A stretch of DNA of 64,000 nucleotides from Patescibacteria group bacterium (GTDB lineage: Bacteria > Patescibacteriota > Minisyncoccia > Moranbacterales > UBA2206). A program made the position numbers and the translations under genes. The DNA lies in assembly GCA_022709735.1 (NCBI GenBank), contig JAKLIG010000002.1, positions 1,949-65,948 of the forward strand, in the 5' to 3' direction. The notes under the pieces are model-generated. The model saw nothing but the letters and a program-made list of their open reading frames with translations, was not told the origin of the DNA and did no database searches. Below are positions 17,950 through 56,512 of this stretch, piece by piece (within the stretch, counting starts at the first letter, position 1; each line of letters begins with the position of its first letter).

Positions 17950-17960
17950 AATAATTATTA

Positions 17961-18065
17961 AATGCGACTCTAATTTACGAATGAGCATTCGAATGTTTCG
18001 AATGATTCGGTTTTATTCGAGTCATTCGTGTGCAGATTCGAGTCATTCGGGTCGCTTATTAAATT
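17961..18065 (-). repeat. intercistronic ~105-bp palindromic element, subfamily A, copy I (rpoB-rpoC spacer)
   Basis: near-identical to 29149-29266 except that copy lacks here the 20-bp CCTGCC palindrome; built of CATTCGAATG/ATTCGAGT words; terminal inverted repeat GCGACYC...GAGTCGC. Confidence 0.85.
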
Positions 18066-21000
18066 TTAAACTTGATCAATGTCCTGTTCTTCTTTTTCAT
18101 CTTCATCTTTTTTCGCACCCAAGAGTTCTACATTTAGTCCCAATCCCTTGAGTTCGCTCACAAGCACATGAAAAGATGCCGGAACATTCGGACTTTTTAT
18201 CGGTTCGCCTTTGATAATTGACTCATAGGCTTTGCTTCGGCCCATTACATCATCAGATTTTATCGTAAGCATTTCTTGAAGCGTATAAGCCGCGCCATAT
18301 CCTTCCAACGCCCACACTTCCATTTCTCCAAATCTCTGTCCGCCAAATTGCGCTTTTCCACCAAGAGGCTGTTGAGTAATCAATGAATATGGTCCAATTG
18401 AACGCATGTGAATTTTGTCATCCACCAAGTGGTGAAGCTTCATCACATACATAATCCCAACTGTTGATTTATTATCAAATTTTTCTCCGGTCTTTCCATT
18501 TATCAGCTGAACTTTTCCGTCTTCCGGCAATCCGGCTTTTATGAGTTCTTCCTTGATTTGCTCTTCTGTCACACCTTCTAGCGCTGGAGTCGCTGCCTTA
18601 TATCCTAATTTCAAAGCCGCCCAGCCAAGGTGAGTTTCCAAAATTTGTCCGATGTTCATACGACTAGCCACACCCAATGGATTTATTATCATATCTACCG
18701 GAGTACCATCAGGAAGATGAGGCATATCTTCTACCGGAGCAACTCGGGAGATCACACCTTTGTTTCCGTGTCGGCCGGCTAATTTGTCGCCAACCGAAAT
18801 TTTCTTAAGTTGGGCTACCGATACTTGAATTTGTTGAATCACTCCAGTCGGAAGTTTGTCGCCAAGTTCTCGGGAAAATATTTTTATATCCACTACTTTT
18901 CCATATTCACCGTGAGGCAGATAGAGCGAACTGTCTTTCACATCACGGGATTTTTCTCCAAATATTGCGCGAAGTAATCTTTCTTCACTCGTCAAATCGC
19001 CTTCGCCTTTAGGAGAAATTTTTCCAACCAAAATATCACTGGAAGAAACTTCTGCTCCAATTCTGATTATTCCGGTTTCGTCTAAATTTTTCAGCCGTTC
19101 TTCCCCGATGTTTGGAATATCGCGTGTGATAATTTCCGGCCCAAGTTTTGTATCGCGAACATCAATTGAAAAATCTTCAATGTGAATTGAGCTATAGCGG
19201 TCGTCTTCCACTAATTTTTGTGAAATTATAATCGCGTCTTCATAGTTTGATCCTTCCCAAGGAATAAATGCCACCAAAACATTCTGGCCTAAAGATAATT
19301 CTCCTTGATCAGTTGATGCACCGTCCGCCAAAAGCTGTCCTTTCTTCACCATTTGTCCTTTTTCAACTCTAGGGACTTGGTTCATTGAAGTAAACGCGTT
19401 TGATTTTACAAAAGTTTGCAAACGATATTCTCTTTTTAGATATGGTTTTTTCGCCGCCACCGGAGCTTCTTCTTTCACTACGATATGATCACCGTCAACT
19501 TCAATCACTTCTCCATCTGCTTTGGCAATCACCACTTGACCGCTGTCAGCGGCCGCCTTGTCTTCAATGCCCGTTCCAACTAGCGGAGCTTCCGGCTTCA
19601 CGCAGGAAACCGCCTGGCGTTGCATGTTCGAACCCATAAGAGCTCGGTTGGCATCATCATGTTCCAAAAATGGAATGAGTGCTGTCGCTACAGAAATACA
19701 TTGCTTGGCGCTCACATCAATATAATCTAATTTTTCTGCTTCAATTTCTGTTGCTTGGCCTTTCACTCTCGCACCCACAATTTCATCCAAAATATTTCCT
19801 GATTTTGAAATATTAATTCCGGCATGAGCGATATTTTTCCGATCTTCCTTGGCGGCATTAACATATTCAATTTCTCGACTTATCCAAGGTTTGATTTTTA
19901 TATTTTTCTTTTCTTTAATTTTTTCAATTTTCTTTGCCATTTCTTCAGAAATTTCCATTCCAACTTCGAATTCTCCAATTTTTTCATTGAGTATTTTTCC
20001 AGAAATTTTTTCTTCCTTATTTTCCATCTCATGATAAATTTTGAGATATGGCGTTTCTAAAAATCCAAAAGGATTTATTTTTGTATAAGTCGCCAAATGA
20101 CCAACCAATCCGATGTTTGGACCTTCCGGAGTTTCTACCGGACAAATTCGGCCATAATGGGAAGGATGGACATCTCGTACTTCAAAACCGGCGCGTTCTC
20201 TAGTGAGTCCGCCTGGGCCCATCGCGCTGATTCTTCTCTTGTGTTCCAACTCCGCCAAAGGGTTGACTTGATCCATGAATTGGGAGAGTTGAGAACTAGA
20301 AAAAAATTCTTTGATCGCAGCCGCTACCGGACGGGAATTTACTAATTGCCCCGGAACAACTGTTGCGATATCGCAGGTACTCATTCGGTCTTTGATATTT
20401 CTGGCAGTTCTGGCAAGCCCCACGCGTAATTTATTTTGCACTAACTCTCCGACTGATCGCACTCTTCTGTTTCCAAGATGATCAATATCATCCGCGATAG
20501 CTCTTGGATCATTGTTTAACCTGATAATTTCTTTGATTATTAAATTCAAATCTTCTCGCACTAACACCCGATTTTCTTCATCGTCTGGTCGTTCCACTTC
20601 CAATCTTTGGTTCAAGCGATATCGGCCAACTCCGCCAAAGTCATATTTTTCAAAACTAAAAAACATCGAGTCCACCACTTGCTTGGCGTTCGATTCAGTG
20701 GCCAAATCTCCCGGACGAATTCTTTTATATACGTCCTTATATCCTTCGCCTTGATTTTTAGCGACGTCTTTCTGGATAGTCGCATCAATATATTTTGTTT
20801 CCCCGTTGTCGCTGTCTTTAAAAAGATTTAATAGTTGCTGATCAGAAGAATAACCGAAAGCGCGAAGAAGTGAAGTGATGGCGACCTTTCTTTTGCGGTC
20901 GATTTTCACAAAAATCGCTCCATCAAAATCAGTTTCAAGTTCCAGCCAGGCTCCGCGATTTGGAATAATTTTAGCACCAAAAAGTTTTTTGCCTTTGAAA

Positions 21001-24477: not shown

Positions 24478-24611
24478 AAAATCCCGTCCACCTGCCTGAT
24501 TTTCCTATCTAATTATAATTCCTCAATTATTTCAGTTAGATAATCTTTATTCTTAGTTGAGGAAGAATATAGCAAAATAAGAAAATCTGGCAGGCAAGTA
24601 CGGGATTTCAC
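24478..24611. repeat. tRNA-proximal palindromic TIR element, copy 1
   Basis: outer IR AAAATCCCGT.../...ACGGGATTT; inner TIR CCTGCCTGATTTTCC...GAAAATCTGGCAGG; central palindrome CCTCAAT...AGTTGAGG; related to copies at 55752, 56000 and 56405. Confidence 0.75.
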
Positions 24612-29135: not shown

Positions 29136-29148
29136 AAATTATATTTTA

Positions 29149-29266
29149 AATGCGACTCTAATTTACGAACCTGCCTGCCGGCAGGCAGGTGAACATTCGA
29201 ATGTTTCGAATGATTCGGTTTTATTCGAGTCATTCGTGTGCAGATTCGAGTCATTCGGGTCGCTTA
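29149..29266 (-). repeat. intercistronic palindromic element, subfamily A, copy II (tig-clpP spacer), carrying the 20-bp palindrome CCTGCCTGCCGGCAGGCAGG
   Basis: identical to the copy at 17961-18065 except that TGAG is replaced by a 23-bp segment containing the perfect palindrome (approx. 29173-29192). Confidence 0.85.
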
Positions 29267-30547
29267 TTAAATTTTTTCCAGGTATTCAAACACTTTCTCA
29301 TTTTCCAAAACTCCTTTGCTATAAGTATACAATCTTTCCATATCAATATTCTTCTCCATATCTTTGACATTCTTGTAATATTGCAAAGTCTTGTTTATCT
29401 CCGCTTCAATTTCTTCTGATGTCGCTTCCAAACTTTCTAGCTCGGTTATTTTCTTAAGTGCCAGCGCGCTAATTACTCTTTTTTCGGCCTGTGGCTCCCA
29501 GTCATGAATAAGTTCTTCCTTGTCTTTCTTAATTTGCGCCAGATATTGATCAAGATTCATTCCCATCGGCGCCAACTGATATTCAAATTCGTCGAGCATT
29601 TTGTGCGCTTCTTCGTGAACCAAAATTTCCGGCAGTTCTACCTCCGAGTTCTTAATTATTTCTTCAATATACTTGGTTCTTTTTTCGTCTTTAATTTTAT
29701 GCTCATTTTCGTGCTCCATGCCCTCTTCAATATTTTTCTTGAGCGCTTCTAAATTTTCAAATTTCCCTAAGGATTTCGCAAAATCATCATTGATTTCCGG
29801 CGTCTGCCTTTCTTGAACTAAATTTACTTTTACTTTGAAACTCGCTGGCTTTCCGGCTAAATCTTTTTTATGGTAATCAGCTGGGAAATTCAGCTCGAAT
29901 TCTTTTTCTTCTCCCTCTTTCATTCCAATAATTTGCTCTTCAAATCCCGGGATAAAAACTCCTCGGCCAATGATAAGCGGATGTTTTTTGCTCGTTCCAT
30001 TTTCAATTGGGACTCCGCCGATTTTCACCTCAAAGTCAATTTCGACGCTGTCATTTTTTCGTGCCTCACGCATAACTGTCACCAATTTCACCCGGCTGTT
30101 AGCCAATTTTTCAAGTTCCAATTCCAAATCCGCCTTTTCCACTTTCGAAGTCCGGCTTTTGAAATCATTATTAATTTCTTTTATACCTTTGACATATTTT
30201 TCTTTTATCTCAATTTTTGGCATAACAGAAACGATCGCCTTGTATTTCAAATCTTCCCCTTCTTTTATTTCCACTATTTCTACTTTTGGATTGCCGATTG
30301 CTTCAATTTTTTCTTTTAGAATATAATCGACATAACTTTTCTTCACGGCTTTTTCTCCCGCATTATTGAGGATTGTCCCCAATCCGACTTTTTGCTCAAT
30401 TAAATTTCTCGGCGCTTTGCCCGGGCGAAATCCCGGAATTTTTATCTCTTCTGAAATTTCATTGACTGCCGAGTCTAAAAATTTCTCCCATTCTTTCCAA
30501 GGGACAGTTATTTCAAATTCAATTTGCGATTTTGGTAATTTTTTCAT
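29267..30547 (-). CDS. tig: trigger factor
   Basis: ribosome-binding GFRPGKAP motif, PPIase and C-terminal arm; tig-clpP synteny. Confidence 0.9.
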   Translation of the reverse strand: MKKLPKSQIEFEITVPWKEWEKFLDSAVNEISEEIKIPGFRPGKAPRNLIEQKVGLGTILNNAGEKAVKKSYVDYILKEKIEAIGNPKVEIVEIKEGEDLKYKAIVSVMPKIEIKEKYVKGIKEINNDFKSRTSKVEKADLELELEKLANSRVKLVTVMREARKNDSVEIDFEVKIGGVPIENGTSKKHPLIIGRGVFIPGFEEQIIGMKEGEEKEFELNFPADYHKKDLAGKPASFKVKVNLVQERQTPEINDDFAKSLGKFENLEALKKNIEEGMEHENEHKIKDEKRTKYIEEIIKNSEVELPEILVHEEAHKMLDEFEYQLAPMGMNLDQYLAQIKKDKEELIHDWEPQAEKRVISALALKKITELESLEATSEEIEAEINKTLQYYKNVKDMEKNIDMERLYTYSKGVLENEKVFEYLEKI

Positions 30548-34617: not shown

Positions 34618-34769
34618 TTCCGCACCTGCCTGCCAGCAGGCAAATTTAAACAGAAATGGCAGAAAAGAAAAATTTACATTTATAATTATACCACGCTTTT
34701 AAAAAAATAAAAACAGCCCGTAATCCACAGGCTATTTTTATTTTATTTTGAAATTTCAAAATACGCTTT

Positions 34770-38064: not shown

Positions 38065-38151
38065 GGAAGCGTGCCAGAGTGGTCGAATGGGGCGGTTTCG
38101 AAAACCGCTATATCCGAAAGGGTATCAGAGGTTCAAATCCTCTCGCTTCCG
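38065..38151 (+). tRNA. tRNA-Ser(CGA)
   Basis: class II tRNA: GGAAGCG...anticodon loop TTCGAAA...long variable arm...AGAGGTTCAAATCCTCT CGCTTCC. Confidence 0.8.
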
Positions 38152-38159
38152 CTAATAAA

Positions 38160-41250: not shown

Positions 41251-41583
41251 ATGAATGAAAGAATAAATAAAATCAACGAGCTTATAAAACAACATGTGAA
41301 TGATATCGTTCTCAAAAACCTCTCTTTAAAAGATGGGGTTTTTATTACTATCGCCAAAGTTGACACAACAGAGGATCTTCGTTATACTCGGGTGTTTGTT
41401 AGTATTTTCCCGGAGAAAGAAATTCCTTATGCCACAAAAACTTTGGAAAAAGAACTTTTTGAAATCCAGGGAAAACTTAACAAAAAACTGCATATGCGAC
41501 CACTGCCCAAAATTGAATTCCGTCTTGATATGACAGAATCCAAGGCAGATGAAATAGAAAAAATTTTAAAAGAAATAAATTAG
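41251..41583 (+). CDS. rbfA: ribosome-binding factor A
   Basis: 110 aa; KH-like RbfA motif VFITIAKVDTTEDLRYTRVFVSI; infB-rbfA synteny. Confidence 0.8.
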   Translation: MNERINKINELIKQHVNDIVLKNLSLKDGVFITIAKVDTTEDLRYTRVFVSIFPEKEIPYATKTLEKELFEIQGKLNKKLHMRPLPKIEFRLDMTESKADEIEKILKEIN

Positions 41584-41690
41584 GCGACTCGAATAACTCG
41601 AATTTTCACCCGAATGTTTCGAATTTATTCGAATCATTCGAGTGTTCACCTGCCTGCCGGCAGGCAGGTTCGTAAATTAGAGTCGCTTTT
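41584..41690 (+). repeat. intercistronic palindromic element, subfamily B, copy III (rbfA-nrnA spacer), with the 20-bp CCTGCCTGCCGGCAGGCAGG insert
   Basis: GCGACTCGAATAACTCGAAT...CATTCGAGTGTTCA[CCTGCCTGCCGGCAGGCAGG]TTCGTAAATTAGAGTCGC, then a T-run; starts immediately after the rbfA stop codon. Confidence 0.85.
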
Positions 41691-41694
41691 ATAT

Positions 41695-42654
41695 ATGAAA
41701 AAGTTTTCTCAAGAATTTAATACCCTTAATTTCGTCATCAAAGAATCAACTAACATTCTTCTTTTTGCGCATTCCCGTCCGGATTCTGATACCGTCGGTT
41801 CGGTTTTGGCTCTGCGAGAATATATAAAAAATCTTGGAAAAAATGTTGATATCGCCTGCCTTGATCCCTATCCAGAGTATCTCAAAGATTTGGCGCCAGA
41901 TTATTTTAATTTTCCGGATCATTTAAATCTGGAAAAATATAATTTAATCATCGCTACTGACAGCGTGGAAAGAGGCTTTCAAAAAATTAAGGATAAATTT
42001 ACAGAAAATCAGGTCGTCGCGCTTCTTGATCATCATCCGGATATAACTATTCAAGGTGACATCAATATTATTGAGGCCAGCTATTCTTCCGTTTGTGAAA
42101 TTATTTATAATTTTTTTGAATTTAATAAAATAAAACTCACTCGGCAGATTTCTACTTTTTTACTCTTGGGAATTTTGGGAGACACTGGAATGTTCCAACA
42201 CTCCAATACCACTCCGCGCATTATGGAAATTGCTTCCGCCTTAATGAAAAATGGTGCACCACTTTCAAAAATAATCAGCGTGGCTTTTTCCAATAAAAAT
42301 ATTTCAACTTTGAAACTTTGGGGCCGGGCTTTTGAAAAAGCTAAAATTAATCCAGAAAATGGAATGATCGTTTCATTTATTTCTGAAAAAGAACTCGAAG
42401 AATGCGGTGGCAGCCTTGAAGACATTTCTCAAGTTTCAACTATCCTAAATACAGTCCCTGGAACAAAATTCGCGCTGGTTCTTTCGGAAAGAGGCGATGG
42501 GATAGTCAAGGGCAGTCTTAGGAGCGAAGAATATAAAGGCGTGGATGTTTCGCAAATTGCCGCGCTCTTCGGCGGTGGTGGCCACAAGCTTGCATCAGGT
42601 TTTGAAATTGAAGGAAAAATTGTTGAAACCGAAAATGGCTGGCAGATAATATAG
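41695..42654 (+). CDS. nrnA: DHH-family phosphoesterase NrnA (bifunctional oligoribonuclease/pAp phosphatase)
   Basis: DHH motifs HSRPDSDTVGS, DHH, GGGGH (DHHA1); true start is MKKFSQE at 41695. The track's N-terminal extension is repeat-derived. Confidence 0.75.
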   Translation: MKKFSQEFNTLNFVIKESTNILLFAHSRPDSDTVGSVLALREYIKNLGKNVDIACLDPYPEYLKDLAPDYFNFPDHLNLEKYNLIIATDSVERGFQKIKDKFTENQVVALLDHHPDITIQGDINIIEASYSSVCEIIYNFFEFNKIKLTRQISTFLLLGILGDTGMFQHSNTTPRIMEIASALMKNGAPLSKIISVAFSNKNISTLKLWGRAFEKAKINPENGMIVSFISEKELEECGGSLEDISQVSTILNTVPGTKFALVLSERGDGIVKGSLRSEEYKGVDVSQIAALFGGGGHKLASGFEIEGKIVETENGWQII

Positions 42655-42741
42655 GTGACTCGAATAACTCGAATTTTCACCCGAATGTCTCGAATTTATT
42701 CGAATCATTCGAGTGTTCATTCGTAAATTAGAGTCGCTTTA
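42655..42741 (+). repeat. intercistronic palindromic element, subfamily B, copy IV (nrnA-nfo spacer), without the 20-bp insert
   Basis: identical to copy III except for lack of the 20-bp palindrome at GTTCA^TTCG. Confidence 0.85.
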
Positions 42742-42756
42742 TGCTAAAATAATCTT

Positions 42757-43602
42757 ATGAATATCGGCGCTCACATTTCAATCGCCGGCGGAATTATTGA
42801 AGCCCCCAAAAGAGCTTCCGATTTAGGCTGTGAATGTATGCAAATTTTTACCCGTTCTCCCCAAGGCGGAAAAGCACCAAGCCTCACAAACTCCGTTTGT
42901 GAGGAATTTAAAATTTCAAATTTAAAATTTAAAATTAAGGAGGTTTATATCCATACTCCCTACTACATTAATTTCGCCTCTTCTAATAATCGCATTCGCT
43001 ATGGGTCAGTCAGCGTTGTTCGCGATGAGTTGGAAAGAGGAAATCTCATTGGCGCAAAATATGTCATGACTCATCTTGGCACTGCCAAAGATTTGGGGCA
43101 AAAAGAAGCTACTGCCAAAACTATTAAAATGCTTTCAAAAACTTTGGAAGGATATACTGGAAAAACAAAATTACTTTTAGAAAACAGCGCCGGCGCCGGA
43201 GAAATTATTGGCGATGATCTCTCTGAACTTTCAGAAATTATCAAAGGCGTTGCTTCGGATGCCATCGCTGGAATTTGTCTCGACACCCAACATTCTTTCG
43301 CTTCCGGATATGATTGGCGAAAATCTGATGTAAGGGCAATTCATGAATTGCCCCTGCTAGAAAGAATAGATAAAGAAATTGGACTGGATAAAATAAAATT
43401 AATCCACGCTAATGACAGTCTGACGGATTTCAATTCCAAACGAGACCGCCACGCCCATATTGGCGAAGGAAAAATTGGTTTGGACGCCTTTCAAAACATT
43501 GTCGCCTTTGCTGAGAAAAATAATATAGATATGATCCTAGAAACAGAACATGATAAAGTGAAAAAAGATATTGAAATTTTGAAAAATTTCCGCGATAAAT
43601 AA
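42757..43602 (+). CDS. nfo: deoxyribonuclease IV (endonuclease IV, AP endonuclease family 2)
   Basis: TIM-barrel motifs HAPYLINLAS-like, HLGT, ICLDTQHSFASGYD, HANDS...RDRHAHIGEGKIG, ILETE; contains an in-frame 22-bp palindrome at 43333-43355 coding AIHELPL. Confidence 0.85.
   Translation: MNIGAHISIAGGIIEAPKRASDLGCECMQIFTRSPQGGKAPSLTNSVCEEFKISNLKFKIKEVYIHTPYYINFASSNNRIRYGSVSVVRDELERGNLIGAKYVMTHLGTAKDLGQKEATAKTIKMLSKTLEGYTGKTKLLLENSAGAGEIIGDDLSELSEIIKGVASDAIAGICLDTQHSFASGYDWRKSDVRAIHELPLLERIDKEIGLDKIKLIHANDSLTDFNSKRDRHAHIGEGKIGLDAFQNIVAFAEKNNIDMILETEHDKVKKDIEILKNFRDK
43333..43355. repeat. REP-like palindrome AGGGCAATTCATGAATTGCCCT (copy A, inside the nfo CDS)
   Basis: perfect 22-bp palindrome; related copies at 43606-43630 and 43925-43952. 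Confidence 0.85.
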
Positions 43603-43605
43603 TCG

Positions 43606-43636
43606 TAGGGGCGATTCACGAATCGCCCCTTTTTAA
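43606..43636 (+). terminator. REP-like palindrome copy B acting as terminator-like hairpin after nfo
   Basis: TAGGGGCGATTCACGAATCGCCCCT followed by TTTTTAAAT, 4 nt after the nfo stop. Confidence 0.65.
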
Positions 43637-43702
43637 ATATACGCAAAACAAAAACAGAAAACCAAACCGTCTCCAAAATTTTGATTATTCCCAAAATGGG
43701 AT

Positions 43703-43727
43703 GTACCTGCCTGCCGGCAGGCAGGTT
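43703..43727. repeat. 20-bp palindrome CCTGCCTGCCGGCAGGCAGG at the truncated 5' end of the RAYT-like gene
   Basis: perfect palindrome GTACCTGCCTGCCGGCAGGCAGGTTTT immediately upstream of the GTG start. Confidence 0.85.
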
Positions 43728-43729
43728 TT

Positions 43730-44170
43730 GTGACAATTTGCACGAAAGACCGGGAAGAATTATTTGGAGAAATTAAAAATGGAGAAATGGTTTTGAATGA
43801 ATTGGGAAAAATCGTTTTTAAAAATTTAAAAAATATTCCATATTATTTTGAAAATATAAATTTGGATAAATTTATTGTGATGCCAAATCACGTTCATTTA
43901 ATTCTTGAAATTAACAAAAATATCGTAGGGGCAATTCATGAATTGCCCCTACAAAAACGGCGGAATATGTTGATTCCGAAAATAATCGGCAAATTTAAAA
44001 TGTTATCCGCCAAAGAAATAAATATTCTGGCAAATAATTCTGGGAATCCATTATGGCAACGAAATTATTACGACCATATTATCCGAAACGAAATTGAATT
44101 AAACAAAATTCGCGAATATATATTGGAAAATCCGAAAAATTGGGAACGCGATAGAAATAATATTGTGTAG
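43730..44170 (+). CDS. IS200/IS605-type HuH tyrosine transposase, REP-associated (RAYT)-like, N-terminally truncated (possible pseudogene)
   Basis: HuH motif FIVMPNHVHLILE and catalytic-Tyr motif WQRNYYDHIIRNE; TICTKDREELFGEIKNGEMVLNELGKIV matches this family. GTG start only; upstream in-frame region has no ATG and is occupied by the 20-bp palindrome. Contains palindrome copy C (43925-43952). Confidence 0.7.
   Translation: MTICTKDREELFGEIKNGEMVLNELGKIVFKNLKNIPYYFENINLDKFIVMPNHVHLILEINKNIVGAIHELPLQKRRNMLIPKIIGKFKMLSAKEINILANNSGNPLWQRNYYDHIIRNEIELNKIREYILENPKNWERDRNNIV
43925..43952. repeat. REP-like palindrome GTAGGGGCAATTCATGAATTGCCCCTAC (copy C, inside the RAYT-like CDS)
   Basis: perfect 28-bp palindrome coding VGAIHELPLQ. 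Confidence 0.85.
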
Positions 44171-44265
44171 GGGCAGACCTTGCATCTGTCCTTTTTTATA
44201 TTCACCCGTTTACCCAAATAAAAATCGGCAGGAACCACGATGGACTCCTGCCGAGTTAATAAACG

Positions 44266-55680: not shown

Positions 55681-55752
55681 AGCGGGTAACGGGAATCGAA
55701 CCCGTCGCTCGTCCTTGGCAAGGACGTATATTAGCCACTATACGATACCCGC
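55681..55752 (-). tRNA. tRNA-Gly(GCC)
   Basis: GCGGGTA...anticodon loop TTGCCAA...CGGGTTCGATTCCCG TTACCCGC. Confidence 0.85.
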
Positions 55753-55890
55753 CTGCCTGATTTGCTTACTTTATTATTTATCCCCAACTATTTAAGTTAT
55801 ATAAATTTAATTCTTAGTTGAGACTATTTGATAAAATAAGCAAATCTGGCAGGCACGCCCACCTTGAGCAAGTTTGGCAGGCACGCCCTT
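55752..55890. repeat. tRNA-proximal palindromic TIR element, copy 2 (abuts the tRNA-Gly 5' end)
   Basis: CCTGCCTGATTTGC...GCAAATCTGGCAGGCACGCCC, plus a second GGCAGGCACGCCC 16 bp later. Confidence 0.7.
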
Positions 55891-55927: not shown

Positions 55928-55999
<72 letters not shown>

Positions 56000-56106
56000 C
56001 TACCTAATTTTCCTATCTTATTATAATTCCTCAACTGTTTCAGTTATATAATCTCTATTCTTAGTTGAGGTAAAATATAACAAAATAAGAAAATTTGGCA
56101 GGTAAA
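56000..56106. repeat. tRNA-proximal palindromic TIR element, copy 3 (abuts the tRNA-Phe 5' end)
   Basis: CCTACCTAATTTTCC...CCTCAACTG...CAGTTGAGG...GGAAAATTTGGCAGG; ~97% identical to copy 4. Confidence 0.8.
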
Positions 56107-56374: not shown

Positions 56375-56410
56375 AACGAGGTGCTCTAGCCATTGAGCTA
56401 AGCGTGCCTG
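56375..56410 (-). pseudogene. tRNA 5'-half remnant (acceptor, D-arm, start of anticodon arm)
   Basis: GGCACGC TTAGCTCAATGGCTAGAGCA CCTCG TTCAT... then no 3' half; D-arm identical to the adjacent tRNA-Val; abutted by TIR-element copy 4. Confidence 0.55.
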
Positions 56411-56512
56411 CCTAATTTTCCTATCTTATTATAATTCCTCAACTGTTTCAGTTATATAATCTTTATTCTTAGTTGAGGTAAAATATAACAAAGTAAGAAA
56501 ATTTGGCAGGCG
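56405..56512. repeat. tRNA-proximal palindromic TIR element, copy 4
   Basis: GCCTGCCTAATTTTCC...GGAAAATTTGGCAGGCGAG; near-identical to copy 3. Confidence 0.8.

Follow-up and report, generated by a model that had tools for sequence, protein, structure and literature searches.

We found that the 20-bp perfect palindrome CCTGCCTGCCGGCAGGCAGG, hereafter P1, is very probably a genuine and recently mobile DNA unit, as judged from filled and empty sites that differ by exactly its length. In the 64-kb window, by which we mean the whole stretch of DNA that was analysed, P1 is present in three perfect copies at 29170–29189, 41649–41668 and 43706–43725, and in one decayed copy with three mismatches, CCTGCCTGCCAGCAGGCAAA, which lies between pilin-like genes at 34625–34644; as a palindrome, P1 has no orientation. 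In 100 dinucleotide-preserving shuffles of the window, 0.00 matches were expected by chance, so that the perfect palindrome at about 29169–29195 and its further copies, which an earlier note on this DNA had pointed out, are real. The degenerate copy listed there also exists, starting at 34625 and not at 34621. An A precedes and a T follows each of the three perfect copies, which extends them to 22-bp palindromes. As RNA, P1 is predicted to form an 8-bp stem with a 4-nt loop (-13.9 kcal/mol), and in a window of 32–41% G+C it forms a GC-rich island. An Rfam scan of the window gave tRNAs as the sole matches.

Two of the perfect copies are located in an intergenic host repeat of about 108 bp, of which the window has four copies, all ending in TTCGTAAATTAGAGTCGC. 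Repeat A1 (17957–18067, minus strand, about 108 bp) has 7-bp terminal inverted repeats (GCGACCC/GAGTCGC) and internal TTCGAAT-like short repeats, and it is empty, with the junction 17981^17982 lying in the minus-strand segment 17977–17986 (element sense GCTCA^TTCG). Repeat A2 (about 29145–29275, minus strand) consists of A1 plus exactly the 20-bp insert and one substitution 3 nt from the junction, and its P1 copy lies about 31 nt upstream of a minus-strand start codon. In the same way, B1 (41582–41690, plus strand) equals B2 (42653–42741, plus strand) with 20 bp and two substitutions added; the P1 copy of B1 is located between rbfA and a DHH-family (nrnA-like) gene, 26 nt upstream of the ATG of the latter, and the empty site of B2 is GTTCA^TTCG at 42715–42724 on the plus strand, with the junction 42719^42720. 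Both inserts are found at GTTCA^TTCG in element sense, with no target base duplicated or lost. It had been noted that the palindrome replaces TGAG in subfamily A and that the copies of each pair differ only by the palindrome. Neither description is right: P1 is inserted before TGAG/TGAA, which differ by one base (G/A), and the substitutions, one in the A pair and two in the B pair, come in addition.

The common position of P1 in the two subfamilies was confirmed, whereas two independent hits at one fixed site are not established, because a conversion patch and a requirement for GTTCA both fit the data. According to the former explanation, a single insertion was copied between homologous repeats by short-patch gene conversion, a quite plausible account that we stop short of favouring. 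The only differences between A2 and A1 are P1 and the base 3 nt from the insert, which is in the B-type state in A2 and not in A1 (GTTCA versus GCTCA), and A2 is identical to B1 over the 44 nt that span the insert (TGTTCA-P1-TTCGTAAATTAGAGTCGC); by our own estimate, the chance that a single random SNP would land there and match B is about 1–2%. However, the A and B repeats are homologous on the left side for only about 6 nt before they diverge, the SNP might itself have created the target, and P1 clearly reaches unrelated sites by other routes. P1 also has 7–8 terminal bases in common with the repeats of about 105 bp that lie next to tRNA genes. This part of the hierarchical family proposed earlier holds, but the sharing is confined to this genome: elements with P1-like arms and cargo were essentially limited to the tRNA-adjacent repeats of the window, and both these repeats and the A/B host repeats were absent from the fetched loci of relatives. 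The terminal bases are thus suggestive at most of a hierarchical family.

The third perfect copy splits a RAYT-like gene (PF01797, Y1_Tnp; 43635–44170, plus strand) between the codons for Tyr and Phe (…NGMY^FVTICT…) and shifts its frame. The earlier placement of this copy at the 5' end of the gene thus falls short, as it interrupts the coding sequence. The start codon at 43641–43643 has also changed from ATG to ACG, and the remaining ORF encodes 146 aa from a GTG start (43730–44170), with the HUH motif HVH kept. Because the start codon is lost and P1 shifts the frame, we regard this gene as a pseudogene; by its sequence, the only RAYT-like gene of the window is dead, partly through P1. Excising 43706–43725 in silico restored …NRLQNFDYSQNGMYFVTICTKDREELFG…HVH…, a RAYT-like protein of the PF01797 (Y1_Tnp) family. 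In the relative L125, an intact orthologue lies directly downstream of the gene for EndoIV, and its empty site reads GGAATGTA^TTTTGTGAC, compared with GGGATGTA-P1-TTTTGTGAC in the window, which is an exact gain of 20 bp without duplication.

We then compared the window with 80 syntenic or related loci from metagenome contigs, which were found with the neighbouring EndoIV protein. The intact tRNA-Ser(cga) gene of the window (38065–38152, plus strand) carries the empty allele of a D-loop site (GAGT^GG, junction 38080^38081). In L125 and L133, truncated 5' tRNA-Ser copies upstream of tRNA-Ser(cga) contain P1 in the D-loop at GAGT^GG, and the tRNA-Ser of the window has the same sequence without the insert. 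Together with A1/A2, B2/B1 and the RAYT-like gene of L125, this makes four filled/empty comparisons that give a clean gain of 20 bp without duplication. At the N-terminal site GCCGGCG^GAAT of the EndoIV gene, P1 was found in three of 76 orthologues, while about 70 were empty. Two of them (L148 and L162) have gained 21 nt, a G plus a variant P1, read as GLPAGRH; the third (L172) has gained a perfect 20 nt and, four bases upstream, one further nt, inserted separately, that brings the sequence back into frame (RRLPAGRQ). In total, 22 P1 copies with at most three mismatches were found in 580 kb of relatives. Copies nested in the centre of other P1 copies were observed in L018, L042 and L125. An asymmetric variant, CCTGCCTACCGGCAGGCAGG, occurs in both orientations at many unrelated sites in several relatives; as an asymmetric change common to unrelated sites implies descent from a master sequence, this pattern points to propagation of P1 by copying and not by repeated de novo origin.

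These results bear on the proposal that P1 is a minimal REP-like mobile unit. Four exact events, independent EndoIV insertions, nesting and an asymmetric subfamily all agree with it, and the comparison of empty and filled sites across relatives, suggested as a check, gave precise 20-bp presence or absence in the RAYT-like gene of L125 and in the tRNA-Ser D-loop. Precise insertion or excision is borne out for the four exact events, but it does not extend to every junction in genes, some of which are not clean (+1, -8). Strain-level polymorphism was sought by look-ups of RbfA and of the 319-aa DHH protein, which returned identical sequence only (ENA k141_889471, 194 kb; Logan SRR5007146; NCBI DAOTEH010000002.1), so that none was seen. 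By its gene content and the names given to relatives of its proteins, the window probably belongs to the Patescibacteria.

To define how widely P1 is distributed, an exact 20-mer scan was run over one genome per species (596 Gb). At least 120 loci were found, compared with about 0.5 expected by chance (uniform composition, our own arithmetic). Among the matches listed, the hosts are Patescibacteria lineages, Bacteroidota, Omnitrophota, Planctomycetota and Bdellovibrionales, as well as gamma- and deltaproteobacterial MAGs, Thermodesulfovibrionales and Chloroflexi; they include the cultured Bacteroidota Winogradskyella, Flagellimonas, Longitalea and Flavivirga, and one match lies in a complete chromosome. 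In IMG/VR, P1 was present in 35 viral stretches, one of them a 29.5-kb contig with six copies, and many of the P1-bearing viral contigs have 60–68% G+C. An all-against-all comparison of the flanks (±300 bp) across P1 loci revealed no shared sequence, indicating that the 20-mer is the entire repeat. The possibility that P1 is the end of a larger element was ruled out by the same unrelated flanks. Among the matches listed, 146 of 156 loci hold a single copy, and the 125 genome sites are mostly outside long ORFs. Within the library of papers searched, neither the 20-mer, nor its 16-mer or 12-mer core in a bacterial context, nor LPAGRQ was found. At the level of sequence comparison, many independent landings of P1 are shown, with intergenic DNA, other repeats, hairpins, P1 itself, tRNA-like sequences and protein genes as targets.

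The copies in protein genes provide a record of how the unit is joined and what survives. P1 was found inside the Pfam-supported domains of GatB, FtsK, an RfbB-like dehydratase, ribosomal protein S6 and ScpB, while an ORF of the glycosyltransferase family and two long ORFs without annotation also contain it. All 10 independent in-gene copies, including the two EndoIV events, are read in one frame, xxC CTG CCT GCC GGC AGG CA(G/C) Gxx, giving LPAGR(Q/H); under equal frame use, the probability of 10/10 is about 2e-5 (our own arithmetic). Since 20 nt do not amount to whole codons, the frame has to be rescued by varied junction changes. In GatB of L104, 21 nt stand in place of 9 nt of the 95%-identical relatives L258 and L259, and in S6 of L047 the G…G flanks are consistent with a gain of 21 nt, as judged from the flanks alone. 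Read from these alignments, the results show that the primary unit is 20 bp, that the in-gene copies are translated and neither spliced nor bypassed, and that selection filters the events that survive, with persistence only where the frame is restored. Removal of P1 at the RNA level was considered and is contradicted by the conservation of frame in genes. Selection for frame could also pick out rare imprecise junctions, and the unclean joints themselves (+1, -8) are more typical of repair-type joining.

To characterize the target, 168 non-redundant sites among the matches listed were aligned. Only position -1 was informative, with A at 48% and T at 3%, mirrored at +1, and neither position counts nor an orientation-aware EM search over these sites detected a tetranucleotide or longer motif. 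The fixed target TCA^TTCG proposed earlier is therefore not upheld, the -1 A bias being all that the 168 sites give. With respect to an HUH enzyme of the IS200/IS605 type, such a bias in the place of a 4–5-nt target motif is an unfavourable observation. The junction lies in a pre-existing hairpin loop (stem of at least 6 bp) at 11% of the sites, compared with 1.6% of random positions in a control not matched for intergenic location, and short repeats of 6–8 nt flank the junction at 22% of the sites versus 13% of controls. In tRNA-like sequences, five P1 copies lie where the D-loop meets the D-stem; another occupies the variable loop of a viral tRNA-Met (L227) that is perfect in all other respects and that ARAGORN recognises as intact once P1 is excised. 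As the favoured sites are prone to be single-stranded or structured, we infer a single-stranded target. P1 was also considered as a tRNA intron: when ARAGORN was run with and without excision of P1, L015, L030, L037, L085, L099, L106 and L234 proved to be truncated or pseudo copies, and only the viral L227 yielded a perfect tRNA-Met.

Based on these data, we lean towards P1 being a non-autonomous, REP-like hairpin element that is mobilised in trans, probably through single-stranded DNA. In such a model, P1 would be cut or copied out as a single-stranded hairpin and inserted where DNA is transiently single-stranded, as in hairpin loops, D-loops of tRNA genes and short-repeat arrays, with A^T preferred. 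An enzyme acting in trans would carry out the strand transfer without duplication; the likeliest type would be HUH/Y1, as in TnpA of IS200/IS605 and in RAYTs, and it would not be the product of the window's RAYT-like gene, which is dead. The absence of duplication, the precise joints, the recognition of a hairpin and the structured single-strand targets are the reasons for proposing an HUH/Y1-like strand-transferase, and by analogy with these systems we put the assignment to this type forward only tentatively. It is also conceivable, if somewhat doubtful, that among the mobile DNAs seen so far P1 is the smallest. It would be a 20-nt hairpin alone, lacking tag, partner and duplication, that stays identical across phyla and phages as one widespread enzyme, or the universal replication and repair machinery, recognises only this hairpin and inserts it into single-stranded DNA that is structured. 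A Pfam scan of 150 ORFs flanking P1 detected no enriched transposase or other family. As a control, RAYT-like genes were sought beside the GTAG REP P2 in viral contigs, and none was found; since a genuine GTAG REP gives the same negative, such linkage tests lack power.

The main alternative to an HUH/Y1-like strand-transferase is that, when host ligase or polymerase repairs breaks or gaps, P1 is taken up as an oligonucleotide, either a self-annealed hairpin or a duplex, with no dedicated transposase, and we consider this unlikely. The very weak target sequence preference is compatible with it, as are the variable in-gene junctions (+1 adjacent, +1 nearby, and 8–9 target bases lost) and the fact that no linked gene was found in any phylum examined; the cross-phylum breadth would be easy to explain if universal enzymes suffice. 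However, capture by repair does not fit four perfectly clean events, and it accounts neither for the amplification of one sequence instead of many nor for the strong avoidance of T at -1. Patescibacteria, moreover, generally have reduced repair repertoires.

We regard as quite unlikely the explanation that P1 is mobilised by the RAYT-like (Y1_Tnp) family encoded next to the third copy. Such a gene is present in the window, and its chemistry would leave no target duplication. The family is large, with thousands of matches, some of which are named RayT by their sources, and it abounds in organisms of the same kinds (Patescibacteria, Omnitrophota and Cloacimonadota are among the hit names). But the gene in the window is a pseudogene, with the ATG>ACG change and a frameshift from P1 itself, and the family has its own palindromes: in the 174 retrieved members, the slot that directly follows the HUH motif is in every case filled by a GTAG-type palindrome (GTAG-tagged P2/P3), translated as VGTGRDLSLQ, RDRSRPVPT, VGNGRDRSLQ or VGAGRDLPLQ, with compensatory variants, and as VGAIHELPLQ in the window. 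The RAYT-like genes of the window and L125 both carry, and are preceded by, GTAG-tagged P2/P3 and not P1. P1 has no GTAG tag and occupies the slot in 0/174 members, even with an LPAGRQ-bearing query; consensus queries with LPAGRQ, PACRQAG or CLPAGR placed in the slot retrieved only P3-type slots. Neither tblastn nor a family HMM detected RAYT-like genes in the P1 loci (about 1.9 Mb) other than those of the window and L125, and the family was not seen in the P1 loci of cultured Bacteroidota and high-GC viral contigs.

It is very improbable that P1 is a functional motif under selection, such as a terminator, an RNA-stability hairpin or a protein-binding site, whose spread is not transposition. 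The stability of the RNA hairpin, the mostly intergenic location and the TTTT directly after the third copy would suit such a role. Nevertheless, the sequences that P1 interrupts include genes, a tRNA-Met gene, truncated copies of tRNAs and further P1 copies; it has no conserved context, most copies lack a T-run when their flanks are inspected by eye, and no single point mutation could place 20 bp at a site. An artefact in the form of an adapter, linker or assembly chimera, which the recurrence of one short GC-rich palindrome, unchanged, in many metagenome assemblies might bring to mind, has a negligible probability, as contiguous flanks restore genes and repeats to the base, cultured isolates and a complete chromosome contain P1, decayed and variant copies exist, frame is selected in genes, and independent assemblies of the organism agree.

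Among known systems, REPs form GTAG- and CGTC-tagged super-families that are mobilised by RAYTs (Di Nocera 2013, PMC3733652; Nunvar 2010; Messing 2012), and Di Nocera et al. left 'untagged' stem-loop families as an open question (PMC3733652). Like REPs, P1 is a GC-rich stem-loop of the 20–40 bp class that is mostly extragenic and non-coding, sometimes lies in frame in genes, and is dispersed among housekeeping genes. Unlike them, it has no GTAG/CGTC tag or conserved tail (168 sites, among the matches listed), it is a perfect palindrome, usually a singlet, and crosses phyla, whereas REPs are usually lineage-specific; no cognate RAYT carrying P1 as its own REP was found, the palindromes of the local RAYT-like gene being the GTAG-tagged P2/P3. 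As to copy number, which is tens to hundreds per genome for REPs, the window has four P1 copies in 64 kb and the relatives have 22 in 580 kb. REPINs are modelled as doublets that replicate and move as one unit, with singlets as immobile remnants (Bertels & Rainey 2011, PMC3116915). P1 resembles REPINs as miniature non-autonomous DNA that encodes nothing and probably moves via single-stranded hairpins, but here a 20-bp singlet is the unit at new sites, and filled and empty sites differ by one 20-bp unit.

By analogy, the behaviour of P1 most resembles that of the SDRs of Nostocaceae. SDR1-8, ascribed to Elhai et al. in 2008, are said to be hairpin repeats of 21–27 nt with presence/absence mobility, nesting, an association with short tandem (heptamer) repeats and no known transposase. 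Nesting, short-repeat context, presence or absence among relatives and the lack of a known transposase are common to both; as compared by description only, P1 differs in its 20 nt (one below the published range), its perfect palindrome, its occurrence in many phyla and viral contigs, and its in-frame copies in genes. According to PMC5861425, SDRs are reported from the Nostocaceae alone. The palindromic elements of Rickettsia (RPE; Ogata 2000, as cited in PMC3184786 and PMC3733652) measure 105–146 bp and are restricted to one genus. P1 shares with them the character of palindromic selfish DNA lying in a preferred reading frame inside protein genes (GatB, FtsK, RfbB-like, S6, ScpB and EndoIV), but P1 is 20 bp long, adds 4–7 residues and has a primary insertion length not divisible by three.

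Elements of the IS200/IS605 'peel-and-paste' type insert on the 3' side of a fixed 4–5-nt motif and bear two subterminal hairpins that are imperfect and unlike each other. P1 agrees with them and with the MITE-like PATEs in the absence of target duplication, the precise junctions and the recognition of a hairpin, and possibly in a single-stranded substrate and target; it differs from IS200/IS605 in consisting of a single perfect hairpin, the flanks of which are biased at 1 nt only. MITEs derived from DDE elements, in contrast, have terminal inverted repeats, target duplication and lengths of 50–500 bp, whereas P1 is 20 bp long and left its target unduplicated at the four clean junctions. GC-rich palindromic clusters and double-hairpin elements of fungal mitochondria are mobile hairpins in an AT-rich genome that also occur in genes, where some are bypassed at translation. 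They are organellar, longer and of other sequences, and P1 is translated. Overall, P1 behaves as REPs or small dispersed repeats do and, within genes, as a miniature RPE; it lacks features that define tagged REPs, REPINs, MITEs and IS200/IS605 derivatives. Most surprising in P1 is an identical 20-bp singlet across phyla that is demonstrably the insertion unit.

P1 thus appears as a tag-less singlet at new sites, in contrast to models in which GTAG-tagged doublets are mobile and singlets are dead. If one enzyme family explains it, this would be a widespread hairpin-specific DNA strand-transferase with almost no target requirement, which, if true, would be of interest for the evolution of streamlined genomes and as a tool. 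If the reading as a cross-phylum selfish element is true, P1 would also be a source of short peptides (LPAGRQ) inserted into essential proteins. Such palindromes produce pseudogenes, insertions of 4–7 residues in essential proteins and breaks in metagenome contigs. A spurious N-terminal extension was also observed in the window, where the 346-aa DHH gene call starts inside B1 and reads through P1.

Nearly all members of the RAYT-like family (the 174 retrieved proteins, P0001-P0174) were found to carry a palindrome downstream of the HUH motif, in a slot that lies at 43925-43952 in the RAYT-like pseudogene of the window. The arms of this slot palindrome vary in compensatory fashion, being translated as TGRDLS, NGRDRS or AGRDLP and, in another frame, as RDRSRPVPT, and tandem partial duplications are frequent. 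The RAYT-like gene appears to carry a REP of its own.

In the window, the slot 3' of the HUH motif is occupied by P2, a GTAG-tagged REP family with the sequence GTAGGGGC[A/G]ATTCA[T/C]GAAT[T/C]GCCCCTAC. Two further P2 sites were found, one in EndoIV (43330-43357), where it is in frame, translated as VRAIHELPL and adds a net 21 nt, and the other separating EndoIV from the RAYT-like gene (43605-43630). The related locus L125 (6001-7410) carries at the same three places, instead of P2, the palindrome P3, whose core is either GGACAGGTCGCGACCTGTCC or a variant. Because the EndoIV copies of the window and L125 have a common imperfect outer tag, GTAAGG…CCCT, the comparison suggests a single ancestral insertion in EndoIV, whose 16-nt core was exchanged in concert with the internal palindrome of the RAYT-like gene. 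Two other EndoIV orthologues (L129:6001-6855 and L176:160-1017) contain 14-residue insertions, KVNPHTKKVEGFGV and ASTRGDRLSTRGGE, at further sites. The RAYT-like pseudogene and the next minus-strand gene converge on a hairpin that lies between their ends, TCGGCAGGA…TCCTGCCGA (44225-44255). This hairpin includes GGCAGG/CCTGCC in the reverse order relative to the perfect 20-bp palindrome P1 and probably serves as a terminator in both directions.

P1 was also found within tRNA-like sequences. At the tRNA-Ser(cga) locus of the relatives (L125:1617-1841 and L133:1718-1905; window counterpart, 38065-38152), one or two truncated 5' tRNA-Ser copies, which terminate in the D-loop with P1, are followed by a complete tRNA-Ser. 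This arrangement looks as if a single-copy tRNA gene had been serially replaced or duplicated after hits by P1. In the viral contig IMGVR_UViG_3300033148_008720, excision of P1 (L227:2284-2303) from the variable loop of a tRNA-Met leaves a perfect 72-nt tRNA-Met; P1, if retained, would give this tRNA a long, class-II-like variable arm.

The ~105-bp palindromic elements (24491-24594, 55752-55853, 55999-56102 and 56407-56510), which had no match in the other fetched loci, directly border minus-strand tRNA genes on the 5' side. The terminal sequences of the elements, CCTGCCTG…C(A/T)GGCAGG, match P1 over its outermost 7-8 nt, and a TATAAT-like box inside them is directed toward the tRNA. Possible interpretations are a promoter cassette or a MITE-like element.

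The ~108-bp host repeats A and B (17957-18067, 29145-29275, 41582-41690 and 42653-42741) were absent from the syntenic loci of relatives. They lie in sense orientation every time, directly 5' of a start codon and inside gene strings, and are bounded by inverted repeats of 7 bp (GCGAC[T/C]C/GAGTCGC), with TTCGAAT-like short repeats in the interior. The 346-aa call of the DHH/DHHA1 phosphoesterase (41614-42654) starts within repeat B1 and runs on through P1 (…VHLPAGRQVRKLESLLYMKKF…), and is an example of a spurious N-terminal extension created by palindromes; the NCBI annotation gives a 319-aa version starting at 41695.
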